NCBI GenBank assembly: GCA_028687915.1
Contig: JAQTZF010000001.1
Coordinates: 1,966-65,965, forward strand
DNA length: 64,000 nt
Direction: 5' to 3'
Source of the DNA: Candidatus Daviesbacteria bacterium
GTDB lineage: Bacteria > Patescibacteriota > Microgenomatia > Daviesbacterales > UBA10151
Position numbers and translations under genes: made by a program. The notes below the pieces were generated by a model. That model made no database searches, had not been told where the DNA came from, and worked only from the letters and a program-made list of their open reading frames with translations. Each line of letters starts with the position of its first letter. Within the stretch, counting starts at the first letter, position 1. Shown here in pieces: positions 1-36,052 of this stretch.

Positions 1-230
1 TTTCAGGGTGCGGAGGAGCTTCTACTGTTATTCATGTTAACTTTGATACTTTTCCTGCTGGAGCTCAAACTATTTACTATTATTATGGTAACCTTTCAGC
101 CTCAGATGGTTTTAATCTGGCTGATTTTGCTACTCAGGCTTCTAATTATACTGTAGGTTCTTTGGGATCAGAGGAAAAAAGTGTGGGACCAGTAGCTTAT
201 TGGGGATTTGATGAAGGGCAAGGCCAAACC
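1..230 (+). repeat. Segmental duplication: nt 1-230 are identical to 5110-5340 (tandem paralogous genes)
   Basis: Direct comparison shows no mismatches over ~230 nt. Further identical blocks at 760-860/5950-6050, 2090-2400/7320-7640, 2780-2940/8050-8200 and 3600-3830/8810-9040. Confidence 0.85.
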
Positions 231-3200
231 ACCCAAGACTCCAGCCCTAATAACCTAGATGGGACAATTTCAGGAGCCACCTGGGAAACAGAAGATCAAT
301 GTGTTACTGGAAAGTGTTTATTTTTTGATGGTTCCACTAGCGGTGTCAGTTCTTCCAACAGCAGTCTTTTATCTCCAGCCAATATTACACTTTCGGTCTG
401 GATAAAACCTACTTCCCTACCTACTCTTAACCAAGTTATGGGAATTATAGATAAAAGAGATAACGCTGGTGGTTCTGCTGGATATGTGCTTGAACTTTTT
501 AATAACGGAGGAACTCAAGAAATTTTATGGATTACCCCCGCCGCCTCCGAATTCGTTACAACCTTACCTACTAATACCTGGTCCCATATTGTAATCACCC
601 ATAATGATACTACTGCAACCTTATATCTAAACGGCCAGAATCTTGGTTCTAAACCAGTAGCTCCTATAACTGATTACAATACTTCCCTCCTTATCGGTAG
701 AAGATCTGATGGTGGTTATTTTAAAGGTTTTATTGATGATGTAAAGATTTATCCATTTGCCAAAACTGCTGCTCAAGTAAAGGCTGATTATATCTCTAAA
801 TCAGGAAGCTCTTCTGACCAAGGCTCTTCTGCAGTACTTGGAGCACAAAGCCAAAAATACCTATCTGATGGTTTAGTAGGTTACTGGAAGATGGAAGAAA
901 GTTCTGATGGATCTGGAGCTGTTACTAGAAATGATTCTTCTGGAAATGGGAATAATGTGACTGATAACAATACTGTAGGTTCTGGAGCTGGTAAATTTAG
1001 CAATGCCGCTGATTTCGCACTAAGTAATAGTAATGAAATGCTCTCTATAGCCCATGCGTCTCAAACAGGATTAAACCCCTCTAGCCAAGTTACAGTAGCA
1101 GGATGGGTCAATCCCAGAAGTGTATCCTCAACAGAATGGATTATCTCTAAAGGAACATATAACTGCTGTGGCACACCCGCTTCCTATAATTACGCCTTGC
1201 GAATGTATAATGGAGGCCAGGTACAGTTTTCAGTCAGCACTAACGGAACTTCTTATGATGCATCAGCTTATTCCTCAGTCAGTTTAACCGCAGGAACATG
1301 GTATTACTTAGTCGGTGTTTATGATGGTAAAAATCTACAAGTTTACGTTAACGGTACCCCGGGAACAAGTGCTGCTTTAACAGGGAATATTTACAACAGT
1401 GCTGGTAATTTTACCATTGGAGCAGAAGATTTTGGAAACAATGGTGACCCTATTGGTAATGAATTTGATGGCTCAATTGATGAAGTCAGAGTCTACAACC
1501 GTGCCCTATCCCCCAAAGAAGTTTCTGATTTATATAACTGGGCACCAGGTCCTGTAGGATATTGGAATTTTGAAGAAGGATCAGGCACTGCTGTTAATGA
1601 TACATCTGGTACAGGAAACGCTGGCACTTGGAATGGAGATGGAACTCATTGGACTTCTGGAAAATTTGGCAAAGCTGGAAAATTTAATGGAACTACTGAT
1701 AATGTCCAAATGGCCTCAGCTAGTATTAATACTACTAATCCTTATACCATGGAGGCTTGGATTTCCCCCTTAGATCCTATAACTGAAGGCTGGGACAGAT
1801 TAATTATGGGAAATCAGTTTGGAGATTATCTTTATATTTATGGTACTTCTGGTACTTGGCAACTAAAAATTGGCAGTGCTTATTCAACTACTAATGTTTT
1901 AACCAAAGGCACCTGGCAACATGTAGCAGTAACTTATAACGGCCCTAACACTTATAAAATTTATGTTAATGGTGTAGATGTTACTTCTTCAGGAACAGGA
2001 ACTGGAACTGATAACAGCTCTATTATCTTTGTTGGAAGCAAGTGGGATCTAAGTTCTGCATATCAAGGGAATATTGATGAAGTTAAAATATATAACTATG
2101 CCAGGACCCAAAAACAAATTGTTTCTGATATGAATGGAGGGCATCCTGCAGTTGGATCTCCGGTGGGATCTGCTGTAGGTTATTGGGATTTTGATGAAGG
2201 AGCAGATAATAAATGTTCTGGAGGCACAAATGATGTTTGTAATTCAGGTTCAGGAGGATCTGCTTTAGATGGAGCCCAGTCTGGCATGAGTGTTCCAGCC
2301 ACCACCACCTCAGGCTGGACAAACTCAGGTAAATTTGGCAAAGCTCTAATTTTTGATGGGACTGATGATTTTATTAGTGTTGCTAATAATGCAGCTTTAA
2401 ATACTACCAGTGGATCAATTTCTACCTGGGTCAAACTTTCGGATTTACCTTCCACGAACTATACTGTTGCTTCTAAATGGATCAATGATCCTTATGGGTA
2501 TAGACTACTTATTACCTCCAGCGGACAAGTTCAGATGCAGGTAGGTGATGGGAGTGGAGCCGATACAGTAACCTCAACAGCCGCATTAACTCCAGGTACT
2601 TGGGTTCACTTAGTCGGAACCTGGAAAGCAGGTGCCGGAACTACACTCTATTTTAATGGTGTTCCTACTTCTGCGCCAGTTGGAACAAGAACTATTTCAT
2701 ATTCAGGCACTCCCGGAGCTTTAAATATTGGAAAAAATATATCTGAGTGGTATTTAAAGGGTGCAATTGATGAGTTTAAAATATATCCATATGCCTTAAC
2801 TGCTGATGAGGTTAAAACAGAGTACAACAGAGGGCAATCTTTAGTCTTAGGAGCTGCTGGGAATAATTCTACTTATGCCTCTCAAGCTGCTAATCAGGAA
2901 TATTGTGTGCCTGGGGATACCACTAGTTGTGCTGGACCTATTGGAGAATGGAAATTTGAAGAAAAAAGTGGCCAATCAATTTATGATACTTCTGGGAATG
3001 GCAACACTGGCACTTTAGGTATTGCTGGCAGTGCTAATACAGATGACCCTACTTGGACTTCTGGAAAAATAGGTGGAGCACTAAGTCTGGATGGCAGTAA
3101 TGACACTATTAATTTAGGTTCAGGCAGTAATTTAGATGATTTAGCTGCCGGAGATTTTACTGCTGAGACATGGGCATATCTGATTGATAGAGCTCCGATC

Positions 3201-4391
3201 AGCGGAAATGATGCTATTACTTTAATGGAAAAGATACATGATCCAGGCGGCTGTGTCACCCCAAATGGCTGGTTTTTAACCTCAAACAATTCCAATATGA
3301 ATGTAATTTTTTCTGTCCCTCATGGAACCACTACTGCAACCTATCGATCCGCTCTAAATGTTCTTACCAAAAATTCCTGGCAACATATTGTGGCAGTCTG
3401 GAATGGCACAGCCAAAACAGCAAAAATTTACGTTAATGGAAAAGAGGTTAGCTACCAGACCCAAACTCCAGGAGTAGGAACTTTAAATACTGATGCAAGT
3501 GGAAACTTAAGAATGTCTGGTTCAGCCTGCTCTGCATTTGCTATTAAGGGCAAGGTTGATGAAACAAAAATTTTTAATTACCAACGCACTCCTGCTCAAG
3601 TGGCCTGGGATTATAACAAAGGTGGACCTGTAGGATCCTGGGATTTTGATGAATGCCAGGGTACTTCTGCCTATGATTTATCTGGAAACTCTAATACAGG
3701 CACAATTACCATTGGAACTGGTGCAGGCACAGGACAACAAGATTCTGTTGGTACTTGCACTACTTCTACTGTTACAGCTTGGTATAACGGCAGAACTGGT
3801 AAAAGAAACGCTTCACTTAATTTTGATGGAATTGATGATTATGTCCAAACAGGTACTAATTTACTTGGTGGTAAAAGTATGGCAACTATTTCTACCTGGA
3901 TTTATCCCACCAGTTTTTCTGCTGATGTTTATCTTTCCAGGTTTGTATCCAATGTTACAACTATATTAGGCTGGCAAACAGCTTATACCAGCGTAGGCAG
4001 CCCAAGAGCAGCAATAGCAATTCAAACAAATAATAATCCAGCAAATGTTATCGGATATGGAAATACAGTTCTTTCTGCAAATAATTGGTACCATTTGGTT
4101 GCTGTATATGATGGTACTGCTACCGGAGATGCTAATAGACTCAAGCTTTATCTAAATGGTAAACAAGAAACATTAACCTATGATGGTACTGTGCCTGCAA
4201 CTATATATGATTCAGGAACTAATATAGGTTTCGGAGCTGATTCAGGATTTAGCCCTAGTGCCAGTTATCCCTATGCTACAGGAAAGATTGATGAAGCAAA
4301 AGTTTTCAATTATGCTTTAACTTCTACACAGGTTAAAAACTTATATAATAATGGAGCTGTATTTTACGGACCTTCTACGGGTTCCCCGTAG
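1..4391 (+). CDS. Giant LamG-repeat surface protein, 5'-partial (frame 3 continues from upstream of the window). Tandem paralog of 4823..9616.
   Basis: Open frame runs from nt 3. nt 1-230 are identical to 5110-5340, which lie inside the neighbouring gene, so the true start is upstream of the window. At least 7 LamG/concanavalin-like modules, each ending in the motif D[DE]xx[IV][YF]N[YR]ALxxxE[IV]xxxY (e.g. DEVRVYNRALSPKEVSDLYN, DEVKIYNYARTQKQI, DEFKIYPYALTADEVKTEYN). Confidence 0.8.
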   Translation, partial: SGCGGASTVIHVNFDTFPAGAQTIYYYYGNLSASDGFNLADFATQASNYTVGSLGSEEKSVGPVAYWGFDEGQGQTTQDSSPNNLDGTISGATWETEDQCVTGKCLFFDGSTSGVSSSNSSLLSPANITLSVWIKPTSLPTLNQVMGIIDKRDNAGGSAGYVLELFNNGGTQEILWITPAASEFVTTLPTNTWSHIVITHNDTTATLYLNGQNLGSKPVAPITDYNTSLLIGRRSDGGYFKGFIDDVKIYPFAKTAAQVKADYISKSGSSSDQGSSAVLGAQSQKYLSDGLVGYWKMEESSDGSGAVTRNDSSGNGNNVTDNNTVGSGAGKFSNAADFALSNSNEMLSIAHASQTGLNPSSQVTVAGWVNPRSVSSTEWIISKGTYNCCGTPASYNYALRMYNGGQVQFSVSTNGTSYDASAYSSVSLTAGTWYYLVGVYDGKNLQVYVNGTPGTSAALTGNIYNSAGNFTIGAEDFGNNGDPIGNEFDGSIDEVRVYNRALSPKEVSDLYNWAPGPVGYWNFEEGSGTAVNDTSGTGNAGTWNGDGTHWTSGKFGKAGKFNGTTDNVQMASASINTTNPYTMEAWISPLDPITEGWDRLIMGNQFGDYLYIYGTSGTWQLKIGSAYSTTNVLTKGTWQHVAVTYNGPNTYKIYVNGVDVTSSGTGTGTDNSSIIFVGSKWDLSSAYQGNIDEVKIYNYARTQKQIVSDMNGGHPAVGSPVGSAVGYWDFDEGADNKCSGGTNDVCNSGSGGSALDGAQSGMSVPATTTSGWTNSGKFGKALIFDGTDDFISVANNAALNTTSGSISTWVKLSDLPSTNYTVASKWINDPYGYRLLITSSGQVQMQVGDGSGADTVTSTAALTPGTWVHLVGTWKAGAGTTLYFNGVPTSAPVGTRTISYSGTPGALNIGKNISEWYLKGAIDEFKIYPYALTADEVKTEYNRGQSLVLGAAGNNSTYASQAANQEYCVPGDTTSCAGPIGEWKFEEKSGQSIYDTSGNGNTGTLGIAGSANTDDPTWTSGKIGGALSLDGSNDTINLGSGSNLDDLAAGDFTAETWAYLIDRAPISGNDAITLMEKIHDPGGCVTPNGWFLTSNNSNMNVIFSVPHGTTTATYRSALNVLTKNSWQHIVAVWNGTAKTAKIYVNGKEVSYQTQTPGVGTLNTDASGNLRMSGSACSAFAIKGKVDETKIFNYQRTPAQVAWDYNKGGPVGSWDFDECQGTSAYDLSGNSNTGTITIGTGAGTGQQDSVGTCTTSTVTAWYNGRTGKRNASLNFDGIDDYVQTGTNLLGGKSMATISTWIYPTSFSADVYLSRFVSNVTTILGWQTAYTSVGSPRAAIAIQTNNNPANVIGYGNTVLSANNWYHLVAVYDGTATGDANRLKLYLNGKQETLTYDGTVPATIYDSGTNIGFGADSGFSPSASYPYATGKIDEAKVFNYALTSTQVKNLYNNGAVFYGPSTGSP

Positions 4392-4437
4392 AATAGTATC
4401 TGGTATCTAGTATTTAGTATATGGCAAATATAAAAAA

Positions 4438-4812
4438 ATGGAAAATAATAAAATAAAATCTTTTACTGATTTAATAGCTTGGCAGGAATCACATCAGTTA
4501 GTCCTGATCATTTATAAAATGCTTAAAACTTTTCCCAAAGAAGAGGTTTTTGCTTTAACTGATCAAATGAGAAGATGCTCTATTTCTATTAGTTCAAATA
4601 TTGCAGAAGGATTTTCTAGACAAGGGAAAAAAGAAAAAATGCAATTCTACTATATGGCAAAAGGATCACTAACCGAACTTCAAAACCAGCTCTTAGTTAG
4701 TAGAGACGTGGGTTATATTTCAAAAGAGAAGTTCACTGAAATAGCAGATCAAACAGTATTAGTACATAAATTATTAAATGGTCTGTTAAAATCTTGTTTC
4801 GCAAAATACTAA
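4438..4812 (+). CDS. Four-helix-bundle protein (23S rRNA intervening-sequence protein family, TIGR02436-like; Avd-like fold family)
   Basis: 124 aa. Motifs WQESHQLVLIIYKMLKTFPKEEVFALTDQMRRCSISISSNIAEGFSR ... AKGSLTELQNQLLVSRDVGYI match the family consensus W.KA..L...IY..T..FPK.E.Y.LT.Q.RRA..SI..NIAEG ... GS..EL.T.L.IA...GYI. Confidence 0.8.
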   Translation: MENNKIKSFTDLIAWQESHQLVLIIYKMLKTFPKEEVFALTDQMRRCSISISSNIAEGFSRQGKKEKMQFYYMAKGSLTELQNQLLVSRDVGYISKEKFTEIADQTVLVHKLLNGLLKSCFAKY

Positions 4813-4822
4813 ATACTAAATT

Positions 4823-7800
4823 ATGAAGCTAAATACTAAATACAAAATACTAAATACAAAAAAAATACTCACTCTTACTATTTTAGCCCTTTGTACAGGG
4901 ATTTTCTTGTGGTTCTTTACTAATCCAGCCTCTGCTGCCTGGTGGGATGATAGTTGGACTTTTAGAAAATCAATTGCTCTTACCAACAATACCACTGCTG
5001 AAACAAATGTTTATGTTTCAGTAACTATTAATACAACAGATACATCCAGATTCCAGACTGATTGTGGTGATGTAAGGTTTACCAAACAAAATGGTGAACT
5101 ACTTCCCTATTATATTGTTTCAGGGTGCGGAGGAGCTTCTACTGTTATTCATGTTAACTTTGATACTTTTCCTGCTGGAGCTCAAACTATTTACTATTAT
5201 TATGGTAACCTTTCAGCCTCAGATGGTTTTAATCTGGCTGATTTTGCTACTCAGGCTTCTAATTATACTGTAGGTTCTTTGGGATCAGAGGAAAAAAGTG
5301 TGGGACCAGTAGCTTATTGGGGATTTGATGAAGGACAAGGCCAGACTACTCAGGATTCTAGTACTAATAATTATGATGGAACTTTGGGGGCCACTACTGG
5401 CTCCTCTACAGATGATCCTACCTGGCAAACAGAAGATATGTGTATTTCTGGTAAATGTTTAAAGTTTGATGGTGGTGACTATGTCAGTGGCGGTGATGTT
5501 AACCAAGTAGACAATGTTTCAGCTATCACCGTATCAGCCTGGGTAAAAGTAAATACAGCTACTAATTGGGCAGGTGTAATGGGAAAATCAAGTTCTGGTA
5601 CCAGTCGTTGGGGTATGGAACTGGCAGAAGCAAGCTATGGAGGAACTGATGATGTATTTATCATGATGGGTAATGGTGCCAACTCGTATGGTTACACCCA
5701 GGGAAATATTATTGATACTAATAAATGGCATCTTTGGACTATGGTTTTTGATGGAACTCAATCTGGAAATGCCAACCGTCTTAAATTTTACCTGGATGGA
5801 ATCCAAAGACCCCTTAATTTTGGAGGCACTACCATCCCTGCTACTACTCCTTCAAACAGTACTCCAATCACCATAGGTGCTGAGAATGCTTCCAGTTCTT
5901 TTTTAAATGGAATGATTGATGAGCCAAAAGTCTATAACTATGCTAAAACTGCTGCCCAAATCAAAGCTGATTATATCTCCAAATCAGGTAGTTCTTCTGA
6001 CCAAGGCTCCTCTGCAGTACTTGGAGCATCTTCTCAAAAATACCTTTCTGATGGATTAGTAGGATACTGGAAAATGAATGAAGCTTCCTGGACTAATAAT
6101 TGTTCTGCTGCTTCTGTAACAGATTCTTCTGGTAATGGTAATAATGGTAAGGCATGCCCAAATGCAACAGGACCAACAGGAGGCAATATTGGTACTTTTG
6201 GTAATGGTGGATCTTTTGATGCAGTTGATGACAATATAGCAGTAACTCATGCTAGTTCACTTAGCCTAACAGATTCTATTACTATATCTACCTGGGTTAA
6301 AGTTACCTTAAATAATTCCTGGTCAGATCATGTTATTTTATATAAACAAAACGGAGCCACGTTAAATTATGCGTTTGGAATTAGAGAACAAAATGGTTTA
6401 TTCCCTGATTTTGCATATACTGATGGATCAGGATCAAATAACCATAAATGGAGATCAACTACAGCAATAAGTGCTGACACCTGGACCCATATTACTGTGA
6501 CCTATTCTTTTGGTAAAGCTAATACGATGGCTATATATATTAATGGTGTTCCAGCTAGTGGATCCTGGATTAGCGGTAATGGTAATAGTTCTGCTGATAC
6601 AACCACTACTGACTTATTAATATCTCCTGGAAACAGTACCCTAGATGACCTCCGTATTTATAATAAAACCCTGTCCCCCAAAGAAGTTTCTGATCTCTAT
6701 AACTTTGCCCCAGGGCCAGTAGGATATTGGAATATGGATGATAAAGTTTCTGGTGATTCCAAAACTGTAGTTGATTCCTCTGGTAATGGGAATAATGGGA
6801 CCACAAGTTACGGTGCAAATACCTCTGGCATGGATTGTTCTAAATCAGGTAAGTTTGGTGGTGGCTGTACCTTTGATGGTGTGGATGATTATATTGATGT
6901 AGGATCTGATACTTCTTTAGATAATCTCCCAAATGGAGATTTTACAGCTGAGGCTTGGACAAGATTTGATGCCGCACTTACAGAAACATATTGGCTGATT
7001 CTTGGAAAAACTAAATGGCAGATCGAACCGTTTTATAATGGTGCCCAATCTTCAATTTGGTTCTTTGTAGACATGGGAGCTGGGACTAGTATGGATTACC
7101 GTTGCCAATTTACCTATGACAGAGGTAATTGGCATCATATTACAGGAGTTTATACAGCCAGCACTAAAACAGCGGTAGTTTATTATGATGGCACCCCCTT
7201 AACTTGCTCAACAACTACTGCCGGTGTTGGTACTTATATTGGAGATGCTGCAAGCCCAATGAGAATTGGTATGAATCAGGGTGATGGAACCCCTAAAATG
7301 AATGGTGGACTTGATGATGTCAAAGTTTATAACTATGCTCGTACTCAGAAACAAATTATCTCTGACATGAACGCAGGGCATCCTGCTGTTGGCTCCCCTG
7401 TGGGATCAGCTTTGGGATATTGGAAATTTGATGAAGGAGCAGATAATAAATGCTCTGGAGGCACTAATGATGTTTGTAATTCAGGCTCAGCTGGCTCTGC
7501 TTTAGATGGAGCAGAATCTAATATGAGTATTCCAGCCACAACTACTTCTGGCTGGACTAATTCTGGTAAATTTGGCAAAGCTTTAATATTTGATGGAAGC
7601 AATGATTTTATTAGTGTTGCTAATAATGCAGCTTTAAATTTTGACACTGGCTCTTTTTCTATTTCAACCTGGATGAAAACAACATTTTCAGGAGCAGGAG
7701 AAAAAATACTTATAAGAAAAGATCTAGAATCTCAATCTCCCAGAAGACTTTATACTCTTTTCTATAATCTTGTAGCTAATAAAGCAACTTTTGATCTCTA

Positions 7801-9616
7801 TGACAATGCTACTGAATATAAAGCCACTTCTCTTACCTCAGTAAATGATGGTAATTGGCATCATATTGTTGGAGTAAGAGATTCAACAACCAATCAAATC
7901 AAATTATATGTTGATGGAAAATTGGAAGCTAGCACAGCTATAACTGGAATTAACATAACTAATACCGGGGTGTTAAAATTTGGTAGTTACACAGAAACTG
8001 TCGGTGCCTTTTTCTCCGGTTCCATTGATGAAAGTAAAATCTATGGCTACGCCTTAACTGCTGATGAGGTTAAGACTGAATATAACAGAGGACAATCTAT
8101 GGTATTAGGTGCTGCTGGGAATAATTCTTCTTATGCCTCTCAAGCTGCTAATCAGGAATATTGTGTCCCTGGAGATACCACCTCCTGTGTTGCTCCTGTT
8201 GCTGAATGGAAGCTTGAAGAAGGATCTGGAATTAGTGCTTATGATACTTCAGGAAACGGATCAACCGGGACTTTGACTAATACTCCTGTTTGGACCAATG
8301 GCAAGTATGGTAAAGCGCTTAATTTCTCTGGTACATCATTTATAAATGTAACTGATAGCAATAATTTAAGTCCTGCAAGCAACACATTTAGCGTTGGTGC
8401 TTGGATATACTTAAATTCTACTGGTTCCTATCAAACAATTGTTTCTAAGGATAGTGATGCTGCCAATGGAGGAAGAGAATATTTCTTATATATAGACATC
8501 TCAAACGTAGTAGTTTTTGGAGCTTCTACAAATGGTAATGATATGCCGGCGGTTGTCGGGCTCAGTACTTTATCAGCTGGCAGGTGGTACTATATTGAAG
8601 CTGTTTTAAGCGGATCAAACCAAATGATCTATGTAAATGGTAAGCTTGATAATTCTGCTAACTGGGGTGGCAGCAGTATTCCTAATACTAATACAGCACT
8701 TAATATTGGCAGAAGAAATACTGCCCCTGTAACTAAAGCCCAAATGGATGGTAAAATCGATGACGTCAGATTGTATAATTATGCCCATACCCCTGCTCAG
8801 ATTGCCTGGGATTATAATAAAGGAGCACCTATTGGGCACTGGAAATTTAATGAGTGCCAGGGAGCTACAGCTAATGATTCTTCAGGGAATTCCAATACTG
8901 GAACTATTACTATTGGCACAGGTGCTGGCACAGGACAACAGGATTCTGTAGGAACCTGCACTACTTCTGCTGTTACAGCCTGGTACAACGGCAGAACCGG
9001 AAAAAGAAATTCCAGTCTTAATTTTGATGGGATTGATGATACAGTATCTATTGCCAACCAAGCTAATTTTTCTTTTGAACGCACACAACCATTTTCTATC
9101 TCTGGGTGGATCTATCCAAATATTACCCGCTCCGGATTGCAAATGACTTATGCGATTTTTAGCAAATTAACAAATAACTCACCTTTCACCGGCTATGAAA
9201 TGAATCTGGAATGGAATAATGCCACCCTCACAAATAGAACAACGCTTCAAATTTACTTAATTAGCAGCTGGCCTTCAAACCGAATTACTGTGAACGGTTC
9301 AACAGATCTCCAAAACAGTAGATGGTATCATGCAACATTAACTTATGATGGCTCTTCAGCTGCCAGCGGTGTTAAGCTTTATATAAACGGAGCTGCGGAA
9401 AAGATTACCACTAGTGTTGATGCTTTAACCACAAGTATTGTTAACAACTTAACCCCTTATATTGCCTCCCGACAAAATTCCAATAGCTCAGAAGCCTTAT
9501 TTAATGGCCAGATTGATGATGTGAAAGTTTTTAACTATACCCTTACCTCTACACAAGTTAAAGATTTATATAATGGCGGAGCTGTAAACTTTGGTCCGGT
9601 TACAGGCAGCCCATGA
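4823..9616 (+). CDS. Giant surface protein: signal/TM anchor, DUF2341-like N-domain, then ~8 LamG (concanavalin-like lectin) modules
   Basis: 1597 aa. N-terminal hydrophobic helix. AWWDDSWTFRKSI...DVRFT...LPYYIV...YYYYGN fits DUF2341. Repeated LamG terminal motifs (DDLRIYNKTLSPKEVSDLYN, DDVKVYNYARTQKQI, DESKIYGYALTADEVKTEYN, DDVRLYNYAHTPAQIAWDYN, DDVKVFNYTLTSTQVKDLYN). Long blocks are nucleotide-identical to the gene at 1..4391. Confidence 0.85.
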   Translation: MKLNTKYKILNTKKILTLTILALCTGIFLWFFTNPASAAWWDDSWTFRKSIALTNNTTAETNVYVSVTINTTDTSRFQTDCGDVRFTKQNGELLPYYIVSGCGGASTVIHVNFDTFPAGAQTIYYYYGNLSASDGFNLADFATQASNYTVGSLGSEEKSVGPVAYWGFDEGQGQTTQDSSTNNYDGTLGATTGSSTDDPTWQTEDMCISGKCLKFDGGDYVSGGDVNQVDNVSAITVSAWVKVNTATNWAGVMGKSSSGTSRWGMELAEASYGGTDDVFIMMGNGANSYGYTQGNIIDTNKWHLWTMVFDGTQSGNANRLKFYLDGIQRPLNFGGTTIPATTPSNSTPITIGAENASSSFLNGMIDEPKVYNYAKTAAQIKADYISKSGSSSDQGSSAVLGASSQKYLSDGLVGYWKMNEASWTNNCSAASVTDSSGNGNNGKACPNATGPTGGNIGTFGNGGSFDAVDDNIAVTHASSLSLTDSITISTWVKVTLNNSWSDHVILYKQNGATLNYAFGIREQNGLFPDFAYTDGSGSNNHKWRSTTAISADTWTHITVTYSFGKANTMAIYINGVPASGSWISGNGNSSADTTTTDLLISPGNSTLDDLRIYNKTLSPKEVSDLYNFAPGPVGYWNMDDKVSGDSKTVVDSSGNGNNGTTSYGANTSGMDCSKSGKFGGGCTFDGVDDYIDVGSDTSLDNLPNGDFTAEAWTRFDAALTETYWLILGKTKWQIEPFYNGAQSSIWFFVDMGAGTSMDYRCQFTYDRGNWHHITGVYTASTKTAVVYYDGTPLTCSTTTAGVGTYIGDAASPMRIGMNQGDGTPKMNGGLDDVKVYNYARTQKQIISDMNAGHPAVGSPVGSALGYWKFDEGADNKCSGGTNDVCNSGSAGSALDGAESNMSIPATTTSGWTNSGKFGKALIFDGSNDFISVANNAALNFDTGSFSISTWMKTTFSGAGEKILIRKDLESQSPRRLYTLFYNLVANKATFDLYDNATEYKATSLTSVNDGNWHHIVGVRDSTTNQIKLYVDGKLEASTAITGINITNTGVLKFGSYTETVGAFFSGSIDESKIYGYALTADEVKTEYNRGQSMVLGAAGNNSSYASQAANQEYCVPGDTTSCVAPVAEWKLEEGSGISAYDTSGNGSTGTLTNTPVWTNGKYGKALNFSGTSFINVTDSNNLSPASNTFSVGAWIYLNSTGSYQTIVSKDSDAANGGREYFLYIDISNVVVFGASTNGNDMPAVVGLSTLSAGRWYYIEAVLSGSNQMIYVNGKLDNSANWGGSSIPNTNTALNIGRRNTAPVTKAQMDGKIDDVRLYNYAHTPAQIAWDYNKGAPIGHWKFNECQGATANDSSGNSNTGTITIGTGAGTGQQDSVGTCTTSAVTAWYNGRTGKRNSSLNFDGIDDTVSIANQANFSFERTQPFSISGWIYPNITRSGLQMTYAIFSKLTNNSPFTGYEMNLEWNNATLTNRTTLQIYLISSWPSNRITVNGSTDLQNSRWYHATLTYDGSSAASGVKLYINGAAEKITTSVDALTTSIVNNLTPYIASRQNSNSSEALFNGQIDDVKVFNYTLTSTQVKDLYNGGAVNFGPVTGSP

Positions 9617-9693: not shown

Positions 9694-11703
9694 ATGTTAA
9701 CAATAATTAAAAAGAAATCTGTATTCTGGGATCTAATAGGCTCTATTTTATTGGGGTTTTTTATTATTGGAATAATCTCCTATTTTACTACCAATACTGC
9801 TTTAGCCTGGTGGTTAAATACTGATTATGCTTACAGGCAAAGTATTACCATAACCAACGCAGCTGGCGGATCTGCCCAAACCAATTATCAAGTCCAGGTA
9901 TCTGTAGATACCTACACCTTAATTCAGGCTGGCAAATTAAAAGCAGATTGTTCTGATATCAAGTTTGGCAATAGCACTGACACTAATTTAACCTTTTGGA
10001 GGGAATCAGCTTGTAGTAATACCAGCGGTGTGAATACTCTATATTGGATCACTGTTCCAACAATAGCTATTGGATCTTCAACAGCCACCATTTATGTGTA
10101 CTACGGTTATGCTGATGGTACAGATGCCAGTTCTTACACCAGCCTTCCCACTGGAATTAGTGTTGGTACAGGAGCAGATGGAGCTTGTACTGTTAGCAGC
10201 CCCATTACCCTGGATGGAGCCTCAAATAATACCTGTATAGCAAGAGCCCAGGCAGATGGAGTCAGTTTTGCCTCTACTGCTAATAATACCTCCGGCCAAA
10301 ATCAGGTTACCACTTCCACTACTCCCACAGGGCTAGTGGTAGGTGATGAAATATTAATTATTAACTTACAGGGAACTTCTGGTGATAACTCTAATGTAGG
10401 AAAATATGAAACAGCCAGGATTACAGGTATCAGCACTAATACCCTAACTTTAAACCATAATTTAACCAATACTTATAATGGTACCGGTGGAACTCAAAAA
10501 ATAGTTATCCAAAGAGTGCCAAATTATACTAATGTAACTATAAACTCAGGTGGAACTATTACTGCAACTGCCTTTAACGGAACCAAAGGAGGCATTATTT
10601 TCTTTAGGGCATCTGGCACTTTAACTGTTAGTTCTGGAGGAACAGTAGAAGCCAGTAGCTTAGGTTTTAGGTCAACAGCAGGAGGAGCTGCAGCTACTGT
10701 TGGTACCCAGGAAACATTCACAGGAACAGTAAATAGCAGCTCAACTGCGGGAAGTCTGGGCAGCAATGGTACAAATGAAGGTGGTGCAGGAGGAGGAGGA
10801 AGTGGATCTGGTGGTGGAGGTGGTGGATATAGTGGCACTGGTGGAACTGGCACTTCTGGCTCTGCAGGAGGCAGGGGTGCTTGCGCAGGAAATGATGGTT
10901 ATGATAATTGTACAGGCGCAGGTGGCAATGGCGCCAGTGGAGGTACTGCAGCAGCAGGTAATACAAATTATGGCGCAGCTGCTTTAACTACCATCTATTT
11001 AGGATCTTCTGGCTTCAGTGGATCCGGTGGAGGGAACGGAGGGAATGGTGGTTCTGGAGGAGTAGGTGCTGGTGGTGCAGGAGGAGCAAGTGGCATCGGA
11101 GGAGGTATTGTGATAATTGGAGCAAGTACGATTACAATTGCAGGCAATGTTAAAGCTAATGGAGGCAATGGCAGTGCTGGTTCCGTAGGCACAGCTAATC
11201 AGGGTGGAATATATGGAAATTCTGCTCCTGGTGGTGGTGGCGGTGGTGGTGGAGGTGGAAGCGGGGGAAGTATTCTAATTAATAGTGCCTCCACTACTTT
11301 TGGTTCCAGTTTAATTTCAAGCACTGCAGGCACTGCTGGAGCAGGCGGAGGTGGTGGAAGTGCTACATATAGGGGTGGCGGAGGTGGAGGTAATCCTGGT
11401 GGCAATGGTGGGCCTAATTGTCCTGCCCCTACTTTATACTGCGCTTCCAGTGGTACTTCTGCAAATAATGCTGGTGGAGTTGGCACAACTGGTAGAATTG
11501 CTGCAAATTATAGTACAACTTCCGGTTCTTCTAATCCTACTGCCAATAATACTGTTTTACCTATTGCCAGTGCCCCCAATGGTGATGAAGAAGGTGCTCC
11601 AGACCCCACCCCCACTCCTACCCCAACCCCAACAAGCACTATTGTTGATGTTAGAATTAAAAGTAATATTAGGGTAAAAAGTAATGTACGTGTAGGTCAA
11701 TAA
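9694..11703 (+). CDS. DUF2341-domain protein with Gly-rich (GGxGG) repeat region and a C-terminal PT repeat
   Basis: 669 aa. N-terminal TM. ALAWWLNTDYAYRQSITI...DIKFGNS...LYWITVP...IYVYYGY is DUF2341-like. Central poly-Gly/GGNGGNGGSGG tracts. C-terminal PTPTPTPTPTST. The minus-strand Pro-rich ORFs here are artefacts of the GGN codons. Confidence 0.7.
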   Translation: MLTIIKKKSVFWDLIGSILLGFFIIGIISYFTTNTALAWWLNTDYAYRQSITITNAAGGSAQTNYQVQVSVDTYTLIQAGKLKADCSDIKFGNSTDTNLTFWRESACSNTSGVNTLYWITVPTIAIGSSTATIYVYYGYADGTDASSYTSLPTGISVGTGADGACTVSSPITLDGASNNTCIARAQADGVSFASTANNTSGQNQVTTSTTPTGLVVGDEILIINLQGTSGDNSNVGKYETARITGISTNTLTLNHNLTNTYNGTGGTQKIVIQRVPNYTNVTINSGGTITATAFNGTKGGIIFFRASGTLTVSSGGTVEASSLGFRSTAGGAAATVGTQETFTGTVNSSSTAGSLGSNGTNEGGAGGGGSGSGGGGGGYSGTGGTGTSGSAGGRGACAGNDGYDNCTGAGGNGASGGTAAAGNTNYGAAALTTIYLGSSGFSGSGGGNGGNGGSGGVGAGGAGGASGIGGGIVIIGASTITIAGNVKANGGNGSAGSVGTANQGGIYGNSAPGGGGGGGGGGSGGSILINSASTTFGSSLISSTAGTAGAGGGGGSATYRGGGGGGNPGGNGGPNCPAPTLYCASSGTSANNAGGVGTTGRIAANYSTTSGSSNPTANNTVLPIASAPNGDEEGAPDPTPTPTPTPTSTIVDVRIKSNIRVKSNVRVGQ

Positions 11704-11751: not shown

Positions 11752-13506
11752 ATGAAAAAATTTATTTATATTCTAATCTTAATAGTAACAATATTTCTTG
11801 CCGTAAGTAATTTTGATAATCTAAAAAACTTTCTAAGCATAAAATCTGAAGAGCAAAAAGTAATTGAGCTAAAAACTAAAAAAGAACCTTTAACCAAAGA
11901 AGAATTAAAGTTCCTTTTGGGGAATGCATCAATCCAAAGTATTAAAATTGGGGAAAAAGAGTACTCTTATATAAATAAAAAAGTTGTGGCTAAAAATCAG
12001 CAAAATGTATCAGAGGGTGAAGAAAGAAAAGTATTACAACTGGCTCTATTTTACCTTAGTGTTAAAGAAGACCCTTTATTTACCAGCCCAGAATTTGAGG
12101 TTAAAGATTTTAATAATTCTATTTCTATTTTAGAGCAGGAACAAACTCAACTTCTTACTGTGGCTAAAAAAAATACTTCTATTTTCCCTCTCACCTTTTT
12201 AAAAACAATTTCTGATGTTTTTGATAAAGAAAAAATGTTTTTGACTGACACTAGTTTGGAAAATGCTCAAAACTTACTAAAAACTTACACATTAACTGCT
12301 TCAGCTTATAAAACAGACATAACCTCTTTTACCAAAGGTCTGGAAGCAAAAAAAGCCTATCTTAGCGAACCAGATGTTATTCAACTCAAAGTAGCTACCA
12401 ATACAGAAATTATGCTTGCTGATTTAAAAAAAATGATGGAAAATGGCTCAATTTTAGAATCAGAGGCACAAAAGAGAACTAATTGTCTAAACTCAGGTCA
12501 AAACTGCAGCAGAGAAATCTTTTTCTTTAAAACCCCGGAAATTACAGAAATTGCAAAAGATAAATTTAGTATGCTTCCTCTTACTATACTGTTCCCAATT
12601 CATCCGGATGAGCCTGAATCATTTCGTAAGCTATATATTATCCACTCCCCTTGTTGGGGCTGGGGGCCTGATTTTTCTTCTCCTGCCAACCCTATGTATG
12701 TTGACCATTCAAACGCTAAATTAATAATAGATGCAGAAGGAAATTACCCAAAATCTTTATCTTTAAAATTGGGCAATCAAAACTTTTACAGAAAAGTGGA
12801 CAATACATCAAATAATATAAATAAAAGTTTATCTGAGCTGGGCCTGCGACGGGTTTTACAATCAGAAACAGCCGGTTACCTTTGTAGAAACCTGGAATAC
12901 CAGCCAATGTCAGCAACCATTGATGCTTTTATCAGAGAGTATAAAGATAAACCAATTCTGGGTGGTTTAGATGCAAAAATAGCTAAGTTTGAAAATAACT
13001 TTTTAAATTCTGCCACACCGGCAGATACAGACCTTATTACATTAAGTAAAATTTACAGTTCTGTTTATAAAGATTTGTCTTCCAAAAATTTAAACCCGGA
13101 ATTACAAAACGAAAGCCTAAAAAGATATTTGATGATTAACAGGCAACTATTAGGTTTTCCTAAGATATTAAATAAATCTGCCAATGAATTTTCCCGCTTA
13201 ATTCAACTCCACGAATCTCAACCTGATGTCTTTAAAGAAGAAGGTACTTTTTATGCCTATGTTTTCCCATTTAAAAGTTACTGGAACCTTTTATACTTCC
13301 CTTTTTCTCCTTCCTTCTGGAGATCAGATGCCCACCCTGAATATATAAAGAAGATTGTAATTAATAGTAGCTTTCCCATAAACCAGAAAACATTTATTAC
13401 TTATCCGGAAGCACAATCTATTGCAAACCCGGAGGAAATTAATAGATGGTCCATAGAAGGTTATAAATATACCCTGGAAAAACTGCCACCAACTAGGATT
13501 AACTAA
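11752..13506 (+). CDS. Hypothetical secreted/membrane-anchored protein
   Basis: 584-aa ORF with an N-terminal hydrophobic helix (MKKFIYILILIVTIFLAVSNF). Its stop overlaps the start of the downstream ABC ATPase gene. No recognisable motif. Confidence 0.55.
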   Translation: MKKFIYILILIVTIFLAVSNFDNLKNFLSIKSEEQKVIELKTKKEPLTKEELKFLLGNASIQSIKIGEKEYSYINKKVVAKNQQNVSEGEERKVLQLALFYLSVKEDPLFTSPEFEVKDFNNSISILEQEQTQLLTVAKKNTSIFPLTFLKTISDVFDKEKMFLTDTSLENAQNLLKTYTLTASAYKTDITSFTKGLEAKKAYLSEPDVIQLKVATNTEIMLADLKKMMENGSILESEAQKRTNCLNSGQNCSREIFFFKTPEITEIAKDKFSMLPLTILFPIHPDEPESFRKLYIIHSPCWGWGPDFSSPANPMYVDHSNAKLIIDAEGNYPKSLSLKLGNQNFYRKVDNTSNNINKSLSELGLRRVLQSETAGYLCRNLEYQPMSATIDAFIREYKDKPILGGLDAKIAKFENNFLNSATPADTDLITLSKIYSSVYKDLSSKNLNPELQNESLKRYLMINRQLLGFPKILNKSANEFSRLIQLHESQPDVFKEEGTFYAYVFPFKSYWNLLYFPFSPSFWRSDAHPEYIKKIVINSSFPINQKTFITYPEAQSIANPEEINRWSIEGYKYTLEKLPPTRIN

Positions 13507-14261: not shown

Positions 14262-15031
14262 ATAGAATTTTTAAAATTTATCAAAATCAGCAGCATTTTT
14301 TTCTTGGGTTCACTGGTGCCCTTATTTTCCTAACCATATGGGAGATTATTACCAGGACAAAAATAATCAATCCCATCTTTCTAAGTCCACCCACAGAAAT
14401 CTTACAAACAGAATGGATCCTTTTTACATCCGGTAAAATCTTTCCTCATCTTTTTATATCTTTACAAGAATTTTCATTAGGTTTTGCCATAGCAATAATT
14501 CTTGGAGTATCTTTGGGACTGCTCATTGGTTGGTATAAAAAGATAGAAGCTTTAACTTCATCACTTATCTACAGCCTTTACTCTACCCCCAACATTGCTT
14601 TGCTACCATTGATCATTATTTGGACCGGACTTGGAATATGGTCCAAAATTATTGTGGTTTTTCTGGGAGCATTTTTCCCAATCTTAATCAATACTATCGC
14701 GGGGGTTAAAAACCTAGATCCTAATTTAGTTTCTCTTGCCCGCTCATTCGGGGCAACAGAAAGTCAAATATTCAAAACAATTATTTTTCCTGCATCCCTA
14801 CCCTATATTTTAACCGGATTTAAACTAGCTATTCCCCGAGCAATGATTGGAATGATTATTGGGGAATTCTTTGTTTCCAATCAAGGACTGGGATATTTAA
14901 TTACTTTTTACGGTTCAACCTTCCAAACAGCAGAGATTCTGGCAGTAGTTGTAATTGTAGTAATTATTAGTGTTTCCCTGACTAAACTATTGTCATATCT
15001 GGAAAAACATTTTCAATCCTGGAAAGTTTAA
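14258..15031 (+). CDS. ABC transporter permease (SsuC/TauC-like, BPD_transp_1)
   Basis: 257 aa, ~6 TM segments, EAA-like loop region (ARSFGATESQIFKTIIFPASLPYILTGFKLAIPRAMIGMIIGEF). Translationally coupled (4-nt overlap) to the upstream ATPase gene. Confidence 0.8.
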   Translation: MNRIFKIYQNQQHFFLGFTGALIFLTIWEIITRTKIINPIFLSPPTEILQTEWILFTSGKIFPHLFISLQEFSLGFAIAIILGVSLGLLIGWYKKIEALTSSLIYSLYSTPNIALLPLIIIWTGLGIWSKIIVVFLGAFFPILINTIAGVKNLDPNLVSLARSFGATESQIFKTIIFPASLPYILTGFKLAIPRAMIGMIIGEFFVSNQGLGYLITFYGSTFQTAEILAVVVIVVIISVSLTKLLSYLEKHFQSWKV

Positions 15032-16308
15032 TCTAAATGAGAAACTATTTTTTTGTGTTTACTACTCATCGGAAAGCTATTGATAAACTCCACCTCTAAC
15101 GGTTTAAATATCTCTTCGGAAACCAAACTGGCTAAAGTGCGCCTGGCAGATAAATACAGCTCCTCACTAAATCCTTTTACTATTAATTTTATTAGCTTTT
15201 CTGACTTACCCTGATAACCTTTTTTTAAGATAAGCTGTAACTTTAACCTTGGAATTATTTTTTCTTTTTCTAAATCCTCAAAGACGTGTAACTGGAATTT
15301 AGGTGATGATAGATATTGTTGGAAAGGAAGCAGGGCTTTTTCTACTAAGTCTGCATAAATAAAAACTCCATGTATTTTTAAAGCATCATAATTAATTCTA
15401 CCCAATATTTTAAATCTTTCTTTTTGGCCACACCCACAATCATAATCCTCTACTTCTATTGCATCACCTGTTTTGTACCTAATTAATGGAAACCCATTTT
15501 TATATAAATTAGTAAGAAAAAGTTCGCTGTCTCCGCTTGAATTAATAACTTCATAATAATAATTTGAAGATTTATGGAAGTAATTAGTGCTAAGAGTATC
15601 CAGGCACCCACAACTTAAACCAATCGCCCCTCCCTGGGCTTCTGACATTCCATAATTATAAATAAACCGCGTGTTTTTAAATTTTTTCTTAAATATCAAA
15701 TCCTTTTGTTTGGAACAAAATTCCCCAATTAATGAAATTCTTTTAATATTATCTAAACTATATTCTTTTTCTAAAAACGGTATAAAAAAATATAGGGCTG
15801 TTGGTGAAGTTACAAGTAAATCTATTTTTAATTTGGCAGCAATTTTAGCTGAAAGCGGTAGATTATTAATATCACCTAATACACAAACCGCATTATCCTT
15901 TATTCTTTTTCTATCAAGTAAATGCATGGCAGCTTGATGTGGAGATAATAATTTCATTATAGATGTTACATGAAAGTCATCCCTCGACTTACCTCCTTTA
16001 TCTTTATAAATTTGCCTGGCAAGATTTTGCTGTCTAAATACCACAGATAAAGAGTTTATATTTTTGGTAGTACCACTGGAAATACTCACTGTCCCAAATT
16101 CACTCCAGGGTAAATAAAATCTGCTAAAGGGATCAGAACTAACCAATTCATCTTTAGTTAAATATGGAAGTTTTTTAAAATCTTCCATACTATTAATATC
16201 TTTAATTAAATTTATTCCAGCCTTGGTATATTTATCTTTATAAAAAGAAGAATAAGGAGAGTTCCAGACAAACTCTAATATTTTTTTAATTTTTGAATCT
16301 AATTTCAT
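15028..16308 (-). CDS. PaaK/CapK-like adenylate-forming ligase (phenylacetate-CoA ligase / coenzyme F390 synthetase family), paralog 1
   Basis: 426 aa. N-terminal FYKDKYTKAGINLIKDINSMEDFKKLPYLTKDEL matches the PaaK pattern (YR..F...GV.P.DI.SLEDL.KLPFT.K.DL). SSGTT motif (ISSGTTKN). Size typical of PaaK (~430 aa). Confidence 0.75.
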   Translation of the reverse strand: MKLDSKIKKILEFVWNSPYSSFYKDKYTKAGINLIKDINSMEDFKKLPYLTKDELVSSDPFSRFYLPWSEFGTVSISSGTTKNINSLSVVFRQQNLARQIYKDKGGKSRDDFHVTSIMKLLSPHQAAMHLLDRKRIKDNAVCVLGDINNLPLSAKIAAKLKIDLLVTSPTALYFFIPFLEKEYSLDNIKRISLIGEFCSKQKDLIFKKKFKNTRFIYNYGMSEAQGGAIGLSCGCLDTLSTNYFHKSSNYYYEVINSSGDSELFLTNLYKNGFPLIRYKTGDAIEVEDYDCGCGQKERFKILGRINYDALKIHGVFIYADLVEKALLPFQQYLSSPKFQLHVFEDLEKEKIIPRLKLQLILKKGYQGKSEKLIKLIVKGFSEELYLSARRTLASLVSEEIFKPLEVEFINSFPMSSKHKKIVSHLD

Positions 16309-34213: not shown

Positions 34214-34251
34214 GTGCCGAACGATACCGTCCTTGTGGACTGTTGGGTATC

Positions 34252-34285
<34 letters not shown>

Positions 34286-34597: not shown

Positions 34598-34635
<38 letters not shown>

Positions 34636-36015: not shown

Positions 36016-36052
<37 letters not shown>

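Follow-up and report, generated by a model that had tools for sequence, protein, structure and literature searches.

Among the leading candidates for host recognition in CPR bacteria, which are thought to live attached to host cells, are their very large and strain-specific LamG proteins. In Neisseria pilE/pilS, Borrelia VlsE, and Anaplasma Msp2, conserved segments between the variable ones serve as homology for conversion, with tracts of varying extent; each of these systems has one expression site and arrays of promoterless silent cassettes, and switching takes place within a clonal population. In the tail-fiber adhesins gp37/gp38 of T-even phages, hypervariable receptor-binding segments lie between short conserved motifs, and recombination at these motifs makes mosaics across lineages. 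Multi-LamG surface proteins have been described for nanohaloarchaea (PMC10266531), and there is a record of giant DUF2341-containing proteins from Patescibacteria (PMC11809585).

Here we analyze a window of 64,000 nucleotides from a MAG of Candidatus Daviesbacteria, an ultra-small, uncultured member of the CPR, that carries two such genes, g1 and g2, as collinear tandem paralogs. They resemble the multi-LamG surface proteins of CPR/DPANN, proposed to be host-attachment adhesins, in Laminin_G_3 content, large size, and a secretion signal, as well as in being strain-specific and arranged in tandem gene clusters. In the literature found on those proteins, fixed-order position-specific junctions, position-independent cores, and a coupled four-helix-bundle gene are not described. 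With pilE/pilS, VlsE, and Msp2, g1 and g2 share variable segments flanked by conserved ones and apparent conversion tracts of different extents. Unlike them, they are two long open genes in a window without silent cassettes, their core donors reach at most 56% identity, and exchange is visible only over evolutionary time. As in gp37/gp38, conserved flanks surround hypervariable segments and mosaics extend across lineages, but fold and host are different, swapping here involves the interior of a LamG beta-sandwich, and the flanks are long position-specific junctions rather than one repeated motif.

The two genes form a mosaic with a family-wide junction order, non-orthologous cores that match across positions, and heterogeneous synonymous divergence. 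This recombination-built mosaic is common to the whole family, and a switching system is not demonstrated.

Gene organization of the locus

The reading frame of g1 (frame 3) is open from the start of the window to a stop at 4391, and two further genes follow it in tight succession on the same strand (Table 1). Pfam detects six Laminin_G_3 stretches in g1 (E 2e-141) and six in g2 (E 4e-129), and a family HMM finds six modules in each. DUF2341 (PF10102) matches g2 at aa 80-135; only the last part of the corresponding region of g1 lies inside the window, where it is identical to g2. The g2 product equals MDD2822453.1 at 100% identity, by name a Candidatus Daviesbacteria protein, and g1 was absent from the protein collection searched, both as a partial translation and as a full-length protein. 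The putative signal peptide of g2 was judged by eye from the translation; the N terminus has one hydrophobic segment, at aa 13. The downstream gene g3 is 31% identical to the N terminus of g2 over 119 aa.

The arrangement of g1, four-helix-bundle gene, and g2 is confirmed by an independent Logan contig (L083), which was assembled from the data of another run, equals window positions 3557-4908 exactly, and stops at 4908. The 5' edge of the repeat may lie at this stop.

Table 1. Features of the g1-g2 locus in window coordinates
Feature	Coordinates	Strand	Description
g1	3..4391	+	3' 1462 codons of a DUF2341 + 6x LamG gene; 5' end upstream of the window
Four-helix-bundle gene	4438..4812	+	PF05635, Avd-like, 124 aa, MDD2822452.1
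g2	4823..9616	+	complete, 1597 aa: signal peptide, DUF2341, 6x LamG
Predicted signal peptide of g2	4823..4936	+	Lys-rich N-region, hydrophobic core, ASA|AW cleavage motif
g3 (context)	9694..11703	+	secreted, 669 aa, DUF2341 then Gly-rich repeats; DUF2341 match (Pfam)
Putative recent conversion tract, g1 copy	1..217	+	100% = 5118-5334; cut by window start
Putative recent conversion tract, g2 copy	5118..5334	+	end of DUF2341 to first strand of LamG-1
Aligned block	716-904 / 5899-6087		79% DNA identity
Aligned block	1479-1576 / 6644-6741		77% DNA identity; absent from the original prediction
Aligned block	2074-2373 / 7311-7610		83% DNA identity
Aligned block	2760-2963 / 8018-8221		83% DNA identity
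Aligned block	3549-3839 / 8750-9040		76% DNA identity
J1	g1 765..893, g2 5948-6076	+	protein 95%, DNA 86%, dS 0.60, dN 0.06
J2	g1 1503..1562, g2 6668-6727	+	protein 90-95%, dS 0.43
J3	g1 2088..2399, g2 7325-7636	+	protein 89%, DNA 85%, dS 0.74, dN 0.06
J4	g1 2775..2927, g2 8033-8185	+	protein 92-94%, dS 0.61
J5	g1 3591..3836, g2 8792-9037	+	protein 83-96% in two sub-blocks, dS 0.7-1.1
C-terminal block	g1 4302..4388, g2 9527-9613	+	protein 79%; g1 end ...GPSTGSP
g1 cores	255-764, 894-1502, 1563-2087, 2400-2774, 3009-3590, 3837-4301	+
Six cores of g2	within 5372..9526	+	interleaved with junction blocks
g2 cores	5372-5947, 6077-6667, 6728-7324, 7637-8032, 8267-8791, 9038-9526	+

Conserved junctions alternate with divergent LamG cores

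Divergence between g1 and g2 is strongly nonuniform: sliding-window DNA identity is 0.7-1.0 at module junctions, with which its peaks coincide, and 0.25-0.5 between them. The original prediction, made from the sequence, had assigned the divergent stretches to the LamG cores, and this assignment holds, as the low-identity stretches are the cores and positional g1/g2 core pairs are 23-34% identical in protein, against ~79-99% for the blocks. The peptides that it quoted were all found. Its assertion that all blocks are 100% identical at the nucleotide level has to be withdrawn, as only 1-217 = 5118-5334 is exact; the blocks other than this 5' tract are ~76-89% identical in DNA and 85-96% in protein, with dS of 0.4-1.1 and dN/dS of ~0.1. 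Equating the blocks with inter-module junctions was correct for the position of the identity peaks, but the blocks are not bare linkers and include flanking LamG strands and the C-terminal helix.

The similarities between g1 and g2 in these blocks are far beyond chance. The blocks contain 184 differences, of all 12 substitution types, and third codon positions account for 69% of these. The longest exact match between the two genes is 217 nt, followed by 38 nt inside J3 and 37 nt inside J4. The J2 of g2 is 100% identical in protein to P0002, a protein of another organism.

An AF2 model of g2 aa 637-1100, which covers two domains (pLDDT 86.5, pTM 0.84), shows J3 extending from the final strand and helix of module 3 through the linker into module 4, of which it includes the first 4-5 strands. 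Top Foldseek matches of this model are laminin LG4-5 and neurexin LNS pairs (E 1e-13 to 1e-11). The likeness of g2 to eukaryotic tandem LG/LNS proteins (laminin alpha LG4-5, neurexin) is one of predicted fold only, at 13-16% identity, with no evolutionary or functional equivalence.

The junction series is conserved throughout the family

Both g1 and g2 belong to a family of DUF2341 + multi-Laminin_G_3 surface proteins of Microgenomates/Patescibacteria, in which searches with the two proteins gave 964 and 1132 matches at E <= 1e-10. Each junction is present in all 119 homologs from other genomes, whose overall identity is no more than 29-41%. In these genomes, the identity of the best match reaches 82-100% for J2-J5; for J1 and for the blocks at the N and C termini it reaches 67-79%. 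The order J1-J5 is kept in 108 of 121 proteins (12345 in 70, x12345 in 38), and g1 and g2 both read 12345. A consensus of 45 proteins consists of junction strings with unconserved cores between them and has the C terminus ...RFGPxTGxP.

By bit score, g1 is equally near to P0002 of another organism (1100 bits) and to g2 (1101 bits). The identity of g1 to g2 and to the other organism's protein is 87% and 87%, respectively, in J3, and 69% and 72% in J4. Most junction conservation is purifying selection acting family-wide. Homogenization within the genome was ruled out as the main cause of junction identity, since the junctions are conserved family-wide and g1 is as near to P0002 as to g2.

Such conservation invites a plain account, in which a tandem duplication was followed by divergence without recombination, the junctions being held by purifying selection and the cores drifting or being positively selected in place. 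It would explain why the junctions are conserved family-wide with dN/dS of ~0.1, and why g1 is, over most of the junctions, no more similar to g2 than to the other organism's protein. We nevertheless consider this account unlikely, in view of the cores and of the synonymous divergence described below.

Cores are related across positions and genomes

Divergence in place would leave each core related to its positional partner. In 8 of 12 cases (4 of 6 positions), however, a core of g1 or g2 has no BLAST match at 1e-3 in that partner, yet matches hundreds of other cores. The best relatives of the g1 and g2 cores are in other genomes, often at other positions, with 30-56% identity. Across the family, only 31% of best core matches are at the same position, and 766 cores form 572 clusters at 40% identity. 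Cores 55-90% identical are found in different junction contexts, which is difficult to reconcile with plain duplication: among core pairs at least 60% identical, 26 of 74 have differing contexts, at up to 90% identity, and core 4 of g1 is 55% identical to module 3 of P0002, in a similarity that is bounded by the FDG and IDE motifs and flanked by junctions of differing type. A dN/dS ratio per core is not estimable, given saturation at synonymous sites and the lack of orthology between the cores.

Among the 170 closest family proteins, the best core match is 56% identical, and that set contains no closer donor. An exhaustive HMMER search with one module returned nothing above 40% identity. A word-indexed search with the 12 cores concatenated gave 16 matches, the best at 56%; this search was weak and missed g2 itself. 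No close relative of g1 or g2 with more than 45% overall identity was found in public data in a search of 5.8 billion proteins, and individual g1/g2 exchanges are therefore not datable or traceable to a donor.

Probable gene conversion between the tandem copies

Synonymous divergence between g1 and g2 is nil (0 differences) over a stretch of at least 217 nt and fully saturated at the C terminus, an unevenness that plain duplication does not explain. Pooled over the junction blocks from L1 to the C-terminal block, with the N block excluded, same-codon sharing is 0.66 versus 0.46 expected (z = 7.5); in the cores it is 0.48 versus 0.47 expected, which corresponds to saturation. Sharing follows a gradient, N >> J1-J4 > J5 > C terminus (Fisher p = 0.015), and in the C-terminal block, with saturated synonymous sites, it is 0.52 versus 0.43 expected.

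Other tandem pairs likewise share codons in isolated blocks only, against the expectation from duplication alone: pair k1-k2 in J2 and J4 only, and pair c1-c2 in J4 and J5. Patchy sharing between tandem copies was seen in three of the four genomes compared (this one and 2 of 3 others). Gene pairs from different genomes share codons at chance level, J3 excepted. Because J3 shares codons between genomes, part of the signal of young junctions could be DNA-level constraint rather than conversion. Overall, the shared codons point to conversion that acted on tandem copies in patches and at different times.

At the 5' end, positions 1-230 had been equated with 5110-5340 at 100% identity. An exact tract does exist there, with a true extent of 1-217 = 5118-5334 and an offset of 5117, not 5110. 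Right after it, synonymous differences occur in nearly every codon while the reading frame is kept. Given the divergence of the other blocks, the chance of 0 differences in the tract is ~2e-11 to 5e-16. This tract of at least 217 nt suggests recent gene conversion between g1 and g2.

Alternatively, the identical block could be an artefact of assembly or polishing, with no recent conversion at all. The assembly is a MAG; the tract abuts the window edge, so that a single boundary is visible; and g1 is missing from the protein collection, so that it may be annotated as defective. We regard an artefact as very unlikely, since the edge at 217/218 is sharp and the sequence beyond is strongly diverged yet in frame, and since the independent Logan assembly breaks at 4908 as a true repeat edge would. 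Furthermore, the unrelated genome L005 has the same kind of 5' tract between its own tandem copies, 218 nt long and identical, with both boundaries inside its contig.

The original prediction of repeated gene conversion or cassette shuffling is thus sustained in part: the mosaic at the junctions, the exchangeable cores, and the conversion of junction blocks agree with it, but most junction identity is due to family-wide selection.

A proposed origin of the mosaic

We think it probable that g1 and g2 are old tandem paralogs that combine conserved, ordered junctions with recombined, position-free cores and patchy conversion of junctions between the copies. Their family would comprise secreted surface proteins across the Microgenomates (CPR), with a signal peptide, DUF2341, and six or seven LamG modules. 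Five distinct junction segments follow one another in a fixed order, each running from the final strand and C-terminal helix of a LamG through a linker of 15-40 aa into the initial strand or strands of the LamG behind it, and purifying selection keeps them in >100 genomes. The LamG core, the central 110-145 aa with about nine strands, is hyperdiverse and free of position. Recombination would have replaced or moved cores repeatedly, with breakpoints in or beside the conserved flanks, and conversions of different ages would have homogenized the junction blocks of tandem copies in the same genome patch by patch. In this window they would have left a recent 5' tract (at least 217 nt), intermediate J1-J4, an older J5, and a saturated C terminus.

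Core exchange would presumably be driven by RecA-type homologous recombination, with the conserved flanks as homology. As a counterpoint, relocation of a core needs short shared motifs, and these are a poor substrate for homologous recombination because they are only 61-83% identical over 46 nt and the junction types differ by position. The cores may carry ligand or host specificity, and the junctions may form a structural scaffold. Overall, the evidence from sequence comparison fits evolutionary cassette shuffling together with segmental conversion. A conserved, ordered junction frame, interchangeable cores, and exchange between tandem genes suggest a concrete model for host-range diversification in uncultured organisms. 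This model predicts recombinant variants in the reads of the source sample, specificity located in the cores, and junctions that act as a rigid scaffold.

Switching systems and the Avd-like gene

The pattern had been taken for an antigenic or host-range variation strategy, and a search for further silent cassettes had been proposed. We saw no active switching system in the window, and its remaining 54 kb (9617-64000) contains no silent cassettes or core copies, whole or partial. A Pfam scan of 36 window ORFs revealed no recombinase, invertase, or reverse transcriptase; the scan did not extend to the ORF at 62149-62871 or to three of the four genes in a paralogous tandem array, all at least 120 aa long. 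Shufflon or invertase switching was rejected, as the only candidate was one weak inverted repeat 24 kb away.

Active programmed variation would mean that cores are often swapped from silent cassettes at the junctions, perhaps with the assistance of the Avd-like protein. By analogy, the layout of conserved and variable blocks resembles the minicassettes of pilE/pilS and the invariable and variable regions of VlsE; the putative recent conversion tract, here and in L005, and the conserved four-helix-bundle gene tightly coupled upstream would also be in keeping with it. Still, we find such a system highly improbable. It would require donors, of which the remaining 54 kb holds not even a partial core copy; no core relative above 56% identity was found in public data, and the exhaustive search with one module yielded at most 40%. 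Besides, g2 is full-length, the part of g1 inside the window is an open frame that contains all six modules, the recent tracts lie on the conserved 5' end and outside the cores, and the ORFs scanned include no recombinase, invertase, or inverted-repeat switch.

The four-helix-bundle gene begins 46 nt past the g1 stop and ends 10 nt ahead of the g2 start, and no terminator-like site was found between it and either gene. It scores 128 bits against PF05635 and 34 bits against bAvd, for which the cutoff is 40. Members of PF05635 mostly have no link to a DGR. At DGR loci themselves, PF05635 is the commonest accessory family (PMC10053308), and a PF05635/bAvd-like gene between g1 and g2 could be read as a sign of DGR-style mutagenesis, that is, of reverse transcriptase-driven hypermutation of the LamG cores. 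This reading is scarcely credible and close to refuted: the window ORFs that were scanned contain no reverse transcriptase, a template/variable repeat pair was not found in the window, and the differences, which comprise indels as well as all 12 types of substitution, show no adenine bias. In addition, entire cores of 110-145 aa differ instead of a short C-terminal variable region, and the bAvd score is under the cutoff.

A further idea, which we advance as a long shot, is that the junction series might supply the homology for a dedicated, recombination-based system that diversifies CPR adhesins. In such a system, cores would be swapped at the junction blocks, both among tandem paralogs and between genomes, the translationally coupled Avd-like protein would be involved, and the excess of codons shared between genomes in J3 and J4 would reflect selection on the DNA as a substrate of recombination. 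If true, this would give the widespread PF05635-type family a DGR-independent role. The partnership of LamG genes with an Avd-like four-helix-bundle gene is recurrent and deserves attention: L005, L006, L081, and L082 each have such a gene tightly paired with a multi-LamG gene, as here, which makes five genomes in all.

Organization of the locus

The window derives from a CPR bacterium, and MDD2822453.1 of a Candidatus Daviesbacteria MAG matches g2, the second of two tandem LamG genes, at 100% identity. A Pfam scan detected six Laminin_G_3 matches each in g1 and g2, and a family HMM built from the modules likewise placed six modules in each. At its N terminus, g2 has a DUF2341 domain preceded by a signal-peptide-like segment; a third DUF2341 protein, Gly-rich, is encoded downstream of g2. 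No terminator-like sites were found between g1, the intervening PF05635 four-helix-bundle gene and g2. This arrangement is independently confirmed by L083, a Logan contig (run SRR22315507) matching positions 3557-4908 at 100% identity. The g1 protein was not found in a collection of 5.8 billion proteins that holds both neighbours, MDD2822452.1 (four-helix-bundle) and MDD2822453.1; the source record may list g1 as a pseudogene.

Coordinates of features in the window and on related contigs
Feature	Sequence	Coordinates	Strand	Remarks
g1	window	3-4391	+	ORF, open from window start (5' end lies outside the window), frame 3
PF05635 four-helix-bundle gene	window	4438-4812		124 aa; 46 nt after g1, 10 nt before g2
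g2	window	4823-9616	+	ORF, 1597 aa, tandem with g1
Identical 5' tract	window	1-217 = 5118-5334		exact in DNA; truncated by window start
J2 block	window	1503-1562
J3	window	7325-7636
J4	window	8033-8185
Family C terminus	window	9527-9616
Identical 5' tract, two tandem LamG genes	L005	7613-7830 = 11925-12142		218 nt, 100% identical
PF05635 gene by multi-LamG gene	L005	2866-3459
PF05635 genes by multi-LamG genes	L006	2121-2513 and 7875-8504
PF05635 gene by multi-LamG gene	L082	3528-4103
PF05635 + multi-LamG fused ORF (P0018)	L081	9998-15352
~426-aa ORFs	window	15028-16308, 16310-17599, 21872-23149	-	186-nt 5' blocks 16109-16294, 17358-17543, 22932-23117
Type IV pilin-like protein	window	29290-30345	-
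Type IV pilin-like protein	window	30793-31944	-	single LamG
23S rRNA gene	window	33520-37153	-	group I introns 34809-35064 and 33917-34196
Related rRNA coordinates	window	43046-44516, 32053-32169	-
NHL-repeat protein	window	46255-50634	+	1459 aa, C-terminal dockerin
ORF with duplicated Cys-rich unit	window	55158-56918		tandem duplication 56279-56461

Conserved blocks and divergent stretches of g1 and g2

As the original prediction had it, divergence between g1 and g2 is not uniform. In a protein alignment and in a 90-nt sliding window, seven conserved blocks clearly alternate with six divergent stretches, which show 23-34% protein identity and many indels. The complete DNA identity proposed for the blocks holds only for the first; in the others, DNA identity is 76-83% over 98-300 nt (protein identity, 79-96%), and the longest exact matches after the 217-nt tract are 38 and 37 nt; the J2 and C-terminal blocks had been overlooked. 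Outside the first block, dN/dS is ~0.1, with dS of 0.43-1.09 and dN of 0.04-0.10 (2.2 and 0.21, respectively, in the C-terminal block). Third codon positions hold 127 of the 184 within-block differences, which include all 12 substitution types and show no adenine bias.

The blocks lie at inter-module junctions, as proposed, but are not bare linkers. Modelled with AlphaFold2 from an alignment of 45 sequences, g2 residues 637-1100 are confidently predicted to form two beta-sandwiches (pLDDT 86.5, pTM 0.84), to which laminin LG4-5 and neurexin LNS domain pairs are the closest solved structures. In this model, junction J3 takes in the last strand of module 3 with its C-terminal helix, then ~15 linker residues, and then the opening four or five strands of module 4, leaving ~nine strands for the variable core. 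Because strands and a helix thus map inside the blocks, these represent junctions with framework strands. In modules 2 and 3, N-terminal-side conservation is limited to the first strand (GYW).

The family C terminus, in g2 and in the consensus, carries a conserved (R/N)FGPxTGxP immediately before the stop codon, with no hydrophobic segment after it. This terminus may signal processing or attachment.

Conservation of the junctions across the family

Family analyses were based on the 120-170 best-scoring homologs and a segmentation into junctions and cores made for this analysis. Overall, g2 is 29-41% identical to the closest proteins of other genomes, and each junction is present in 119 of 119 homologs from other genomes. 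The best identity in another genome is 77% for the N block (which holds the identical 5' tract), 67% for J1, 100% for J2, 86.5% for J3, 84% for J4, 82% for J5, and 79% for the C terminus. A majority consensus of 45 proteins consists of long conserved junction strings with unconserved runs between them. When 650 junctions in 121 proteins were typed by their best-matching g2 junction, the order 12345 was found in 70 proteins and x12345, with one extra N-terminal module, in another 38. The g1/g2 similarity noticed originally therefore mostly reflects purifying selection on a conserved frame.

Compared as whole genes, g1 and g2 (1101 bits, 45%) are no closer than g1 and P0002 of another organism (1100 bits, 43%). 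Junction identities are themselves mosaic: g1 J2 is 67% identical to P0002 versus 45% to g2, and the closest relative of the g1 C terminus is k1, a tandem LamG gene on L081.

Relocation of cores

In 8 of 12 g1/g2 cases, that is, at 4 of 6 positions, the same-position core of the other gene was unmatched (BLAST, 1e-3), while such cores still match hundreds of other cores. Their best relatives share 30-56% identity, reside in other genomes, and often occupy different positions. Thus, g1 core 4 matches module 3 of P0002 (55% identity, 137 bits; next match, 72 bits), g2 core 6 matches module 1 of P0030 (48%), and g2 core 1 matches module 4 of P0044 (44%). Similarity between g1 core 4 and P0002 is confined between an FDG motif at the start and an IDE motif at the end, and the flanking junction types differ. 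Across the family, the best match is at the same position for 31% of cores versus ~17% expected by chance, and 766 cores form 572 clusters at 40% identity. Among 74 core pairs of at least 60% identity, 26 are in different junction contexts, the closest of these sharing 90% identity across 130 residues. These cross-position matches and differing contexts indicate that cores have moved between positions, some of them fairly recently in lineages other than that of g1 and g2. No close donor for the g1/g2 cores was found: a concatenated-core search, insensitive in that g2 itself was not retrieved, gave 56% at best, and when g2 module 3 was searched exhaustively against 1.84 billion representatives, no match exceeded 40%.

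Segment ages and gene conversion

We compared the fraction of aligned identical amino acids that use the same codon with the expectation from each gene's codon usage, which is presumed valid at every site. The g1-g2 cores are at chance (0.48 versus 0.47), whereas the junction blocks from L1 through the C-terminal block (N block left out) exceed it (0.66 versus 0.46, z = 7.5). Sharing declines along the gene, from no differences in at least 217 nt of the N block to ~0.71 in J1-J4, 0.57 in J5, and 0.52 in the C terminus (J1-J4 versus J5 plus C terminus, Fisher p = 0.015). Given the divergence in other blocks, a difference-free run of 217 nt has a probability of ~1e-11 to 1e-16; past position 217, third-position differences occur in nearly every codon with amino acids unchanged. 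A single duplication cannot account for blocks so unequal in age, but segmental conversion repeated between tandem copies can.

In a pooled comparison of 12 genes from 7 genomes, between-genome pairs were at chance in all blocks but J3. Within-genome tandem paralogs showed raised sharing in patches only: in J2 and J4 for k1-k2 (L081), in J4 and J5 for c1-c2 (L005), and nowhere significantly for a1-a2 (L007). The independent L005 tract, which spans the signal peptide and DUF2341 start and has two sharp edges, shows that 5'-end homogenization of tandem copies recurs. L083 terminates at 4908. A k-mer graph assembly is expected to break where a repeat ends, and this position may mark the limit of one that the g1 5' end shares; if so, the identical tract would measure ~430-455 nt.

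Compared with L001 from a different genome, J3 and J4 also show raised codon sharing (0.66-0.82 versus ~0.46), the other blocks being at chance. Constraint at the DNA level could explain this excess, as could lateral exchange of the blocks.

A proposed mosaic of three components

The evidence best supports an evolutionary mosaic with three components. Purifying selection would keep the junction series fixed; recombination breaking within the conserved flanks or next to them would replace or relocate cores; and gene conversion between tandem copies would repeatedly re-homogenize the junction blocks, latest at the 5' end. Exact matches of 37-38 nt, as in J3 and J4, and an identical tract of at least 217 nt suffice to seed RecA-type exchange in homologous recombination, and those at this locus could do so. 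The cores presumably set ligand or host specificity, with the junctions as a likely scaffold.

Classical mosaics of conserved and variable blocks kept by conversion are pilE/pilS, VlsE, and the T-even tail-fibre adhesins, which g1 and g2 resemble in this respect. The original prediction went further and proposed an antigenic or host-range variation strategy. Cassette-based antigenic variation is defined by a silent donor array, however, and none is within reach of this locus: 9617-64000 hold no further core or junction copies save one partial case, the single-LamG pilin-like ORF. The locus thus fails the defining test for such variation. Neither reverse transcriptase nor recombinase was found in the 36 ORFs scanned, which take in all window ORFs of at least 120 aa but four, and the window lacks both a repeat of the template/variable type and any useful inverted repeat. 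A DGR was rejected on the lack of a reverse transcriptase in these ORFs, of such a repeat, and of adenine bias.

In CPR and DPANN organisms, multi-LamG proteins of the cell surface have already been discussed as strain-specific adhesins (PMC10266531; PMC11809585). The literature searched describes neither five distinct junctions kept in one order across >100 genomes, nor beta-sandwich interiors swapped between such junctions, nor a multi-LamG gene tightly paired with an Avd-like four-helix-bundle gene, as in five genomes here.

Pairing with an Avd-like gene

In these five Microgenomates/Patescibacteria genomes, the PF05635 (Avd-like) gene ends a few bases before the multi-LamG start or overlaps it. 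No reverse transcriptase was seen among the scanned window ORFs or among the genes called on L081 and L082. The pair looks like a conserved two-gene unit.

Other features of the window

Both type IV pilin-like proteins carry an N-terminal methylation motif. The J2-type first strands of the single-LamG protein are 57% identical in protein to g2 J2 and, over 188 nt, 70% identical in DNA to 6711-6894. Three paralogous ORFs of ~426 aa have no Pfam match and share a 186-nt 5' block (82-91% identical), another case of N-terminally concentrated paralog similarity. Two group I introns interrupt the 23S rRNA gene, and ~5.9 kb with GAPDH, PGK and tRNA genes lies between it and the 16S gene; the rRNA genes thus bear introns and are not linked. 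Additional surface-protein genes are those of the NHL-repeat protein and of the ORF with a Cys-rich unit in a 96-nt tandem duplication (95% identical).
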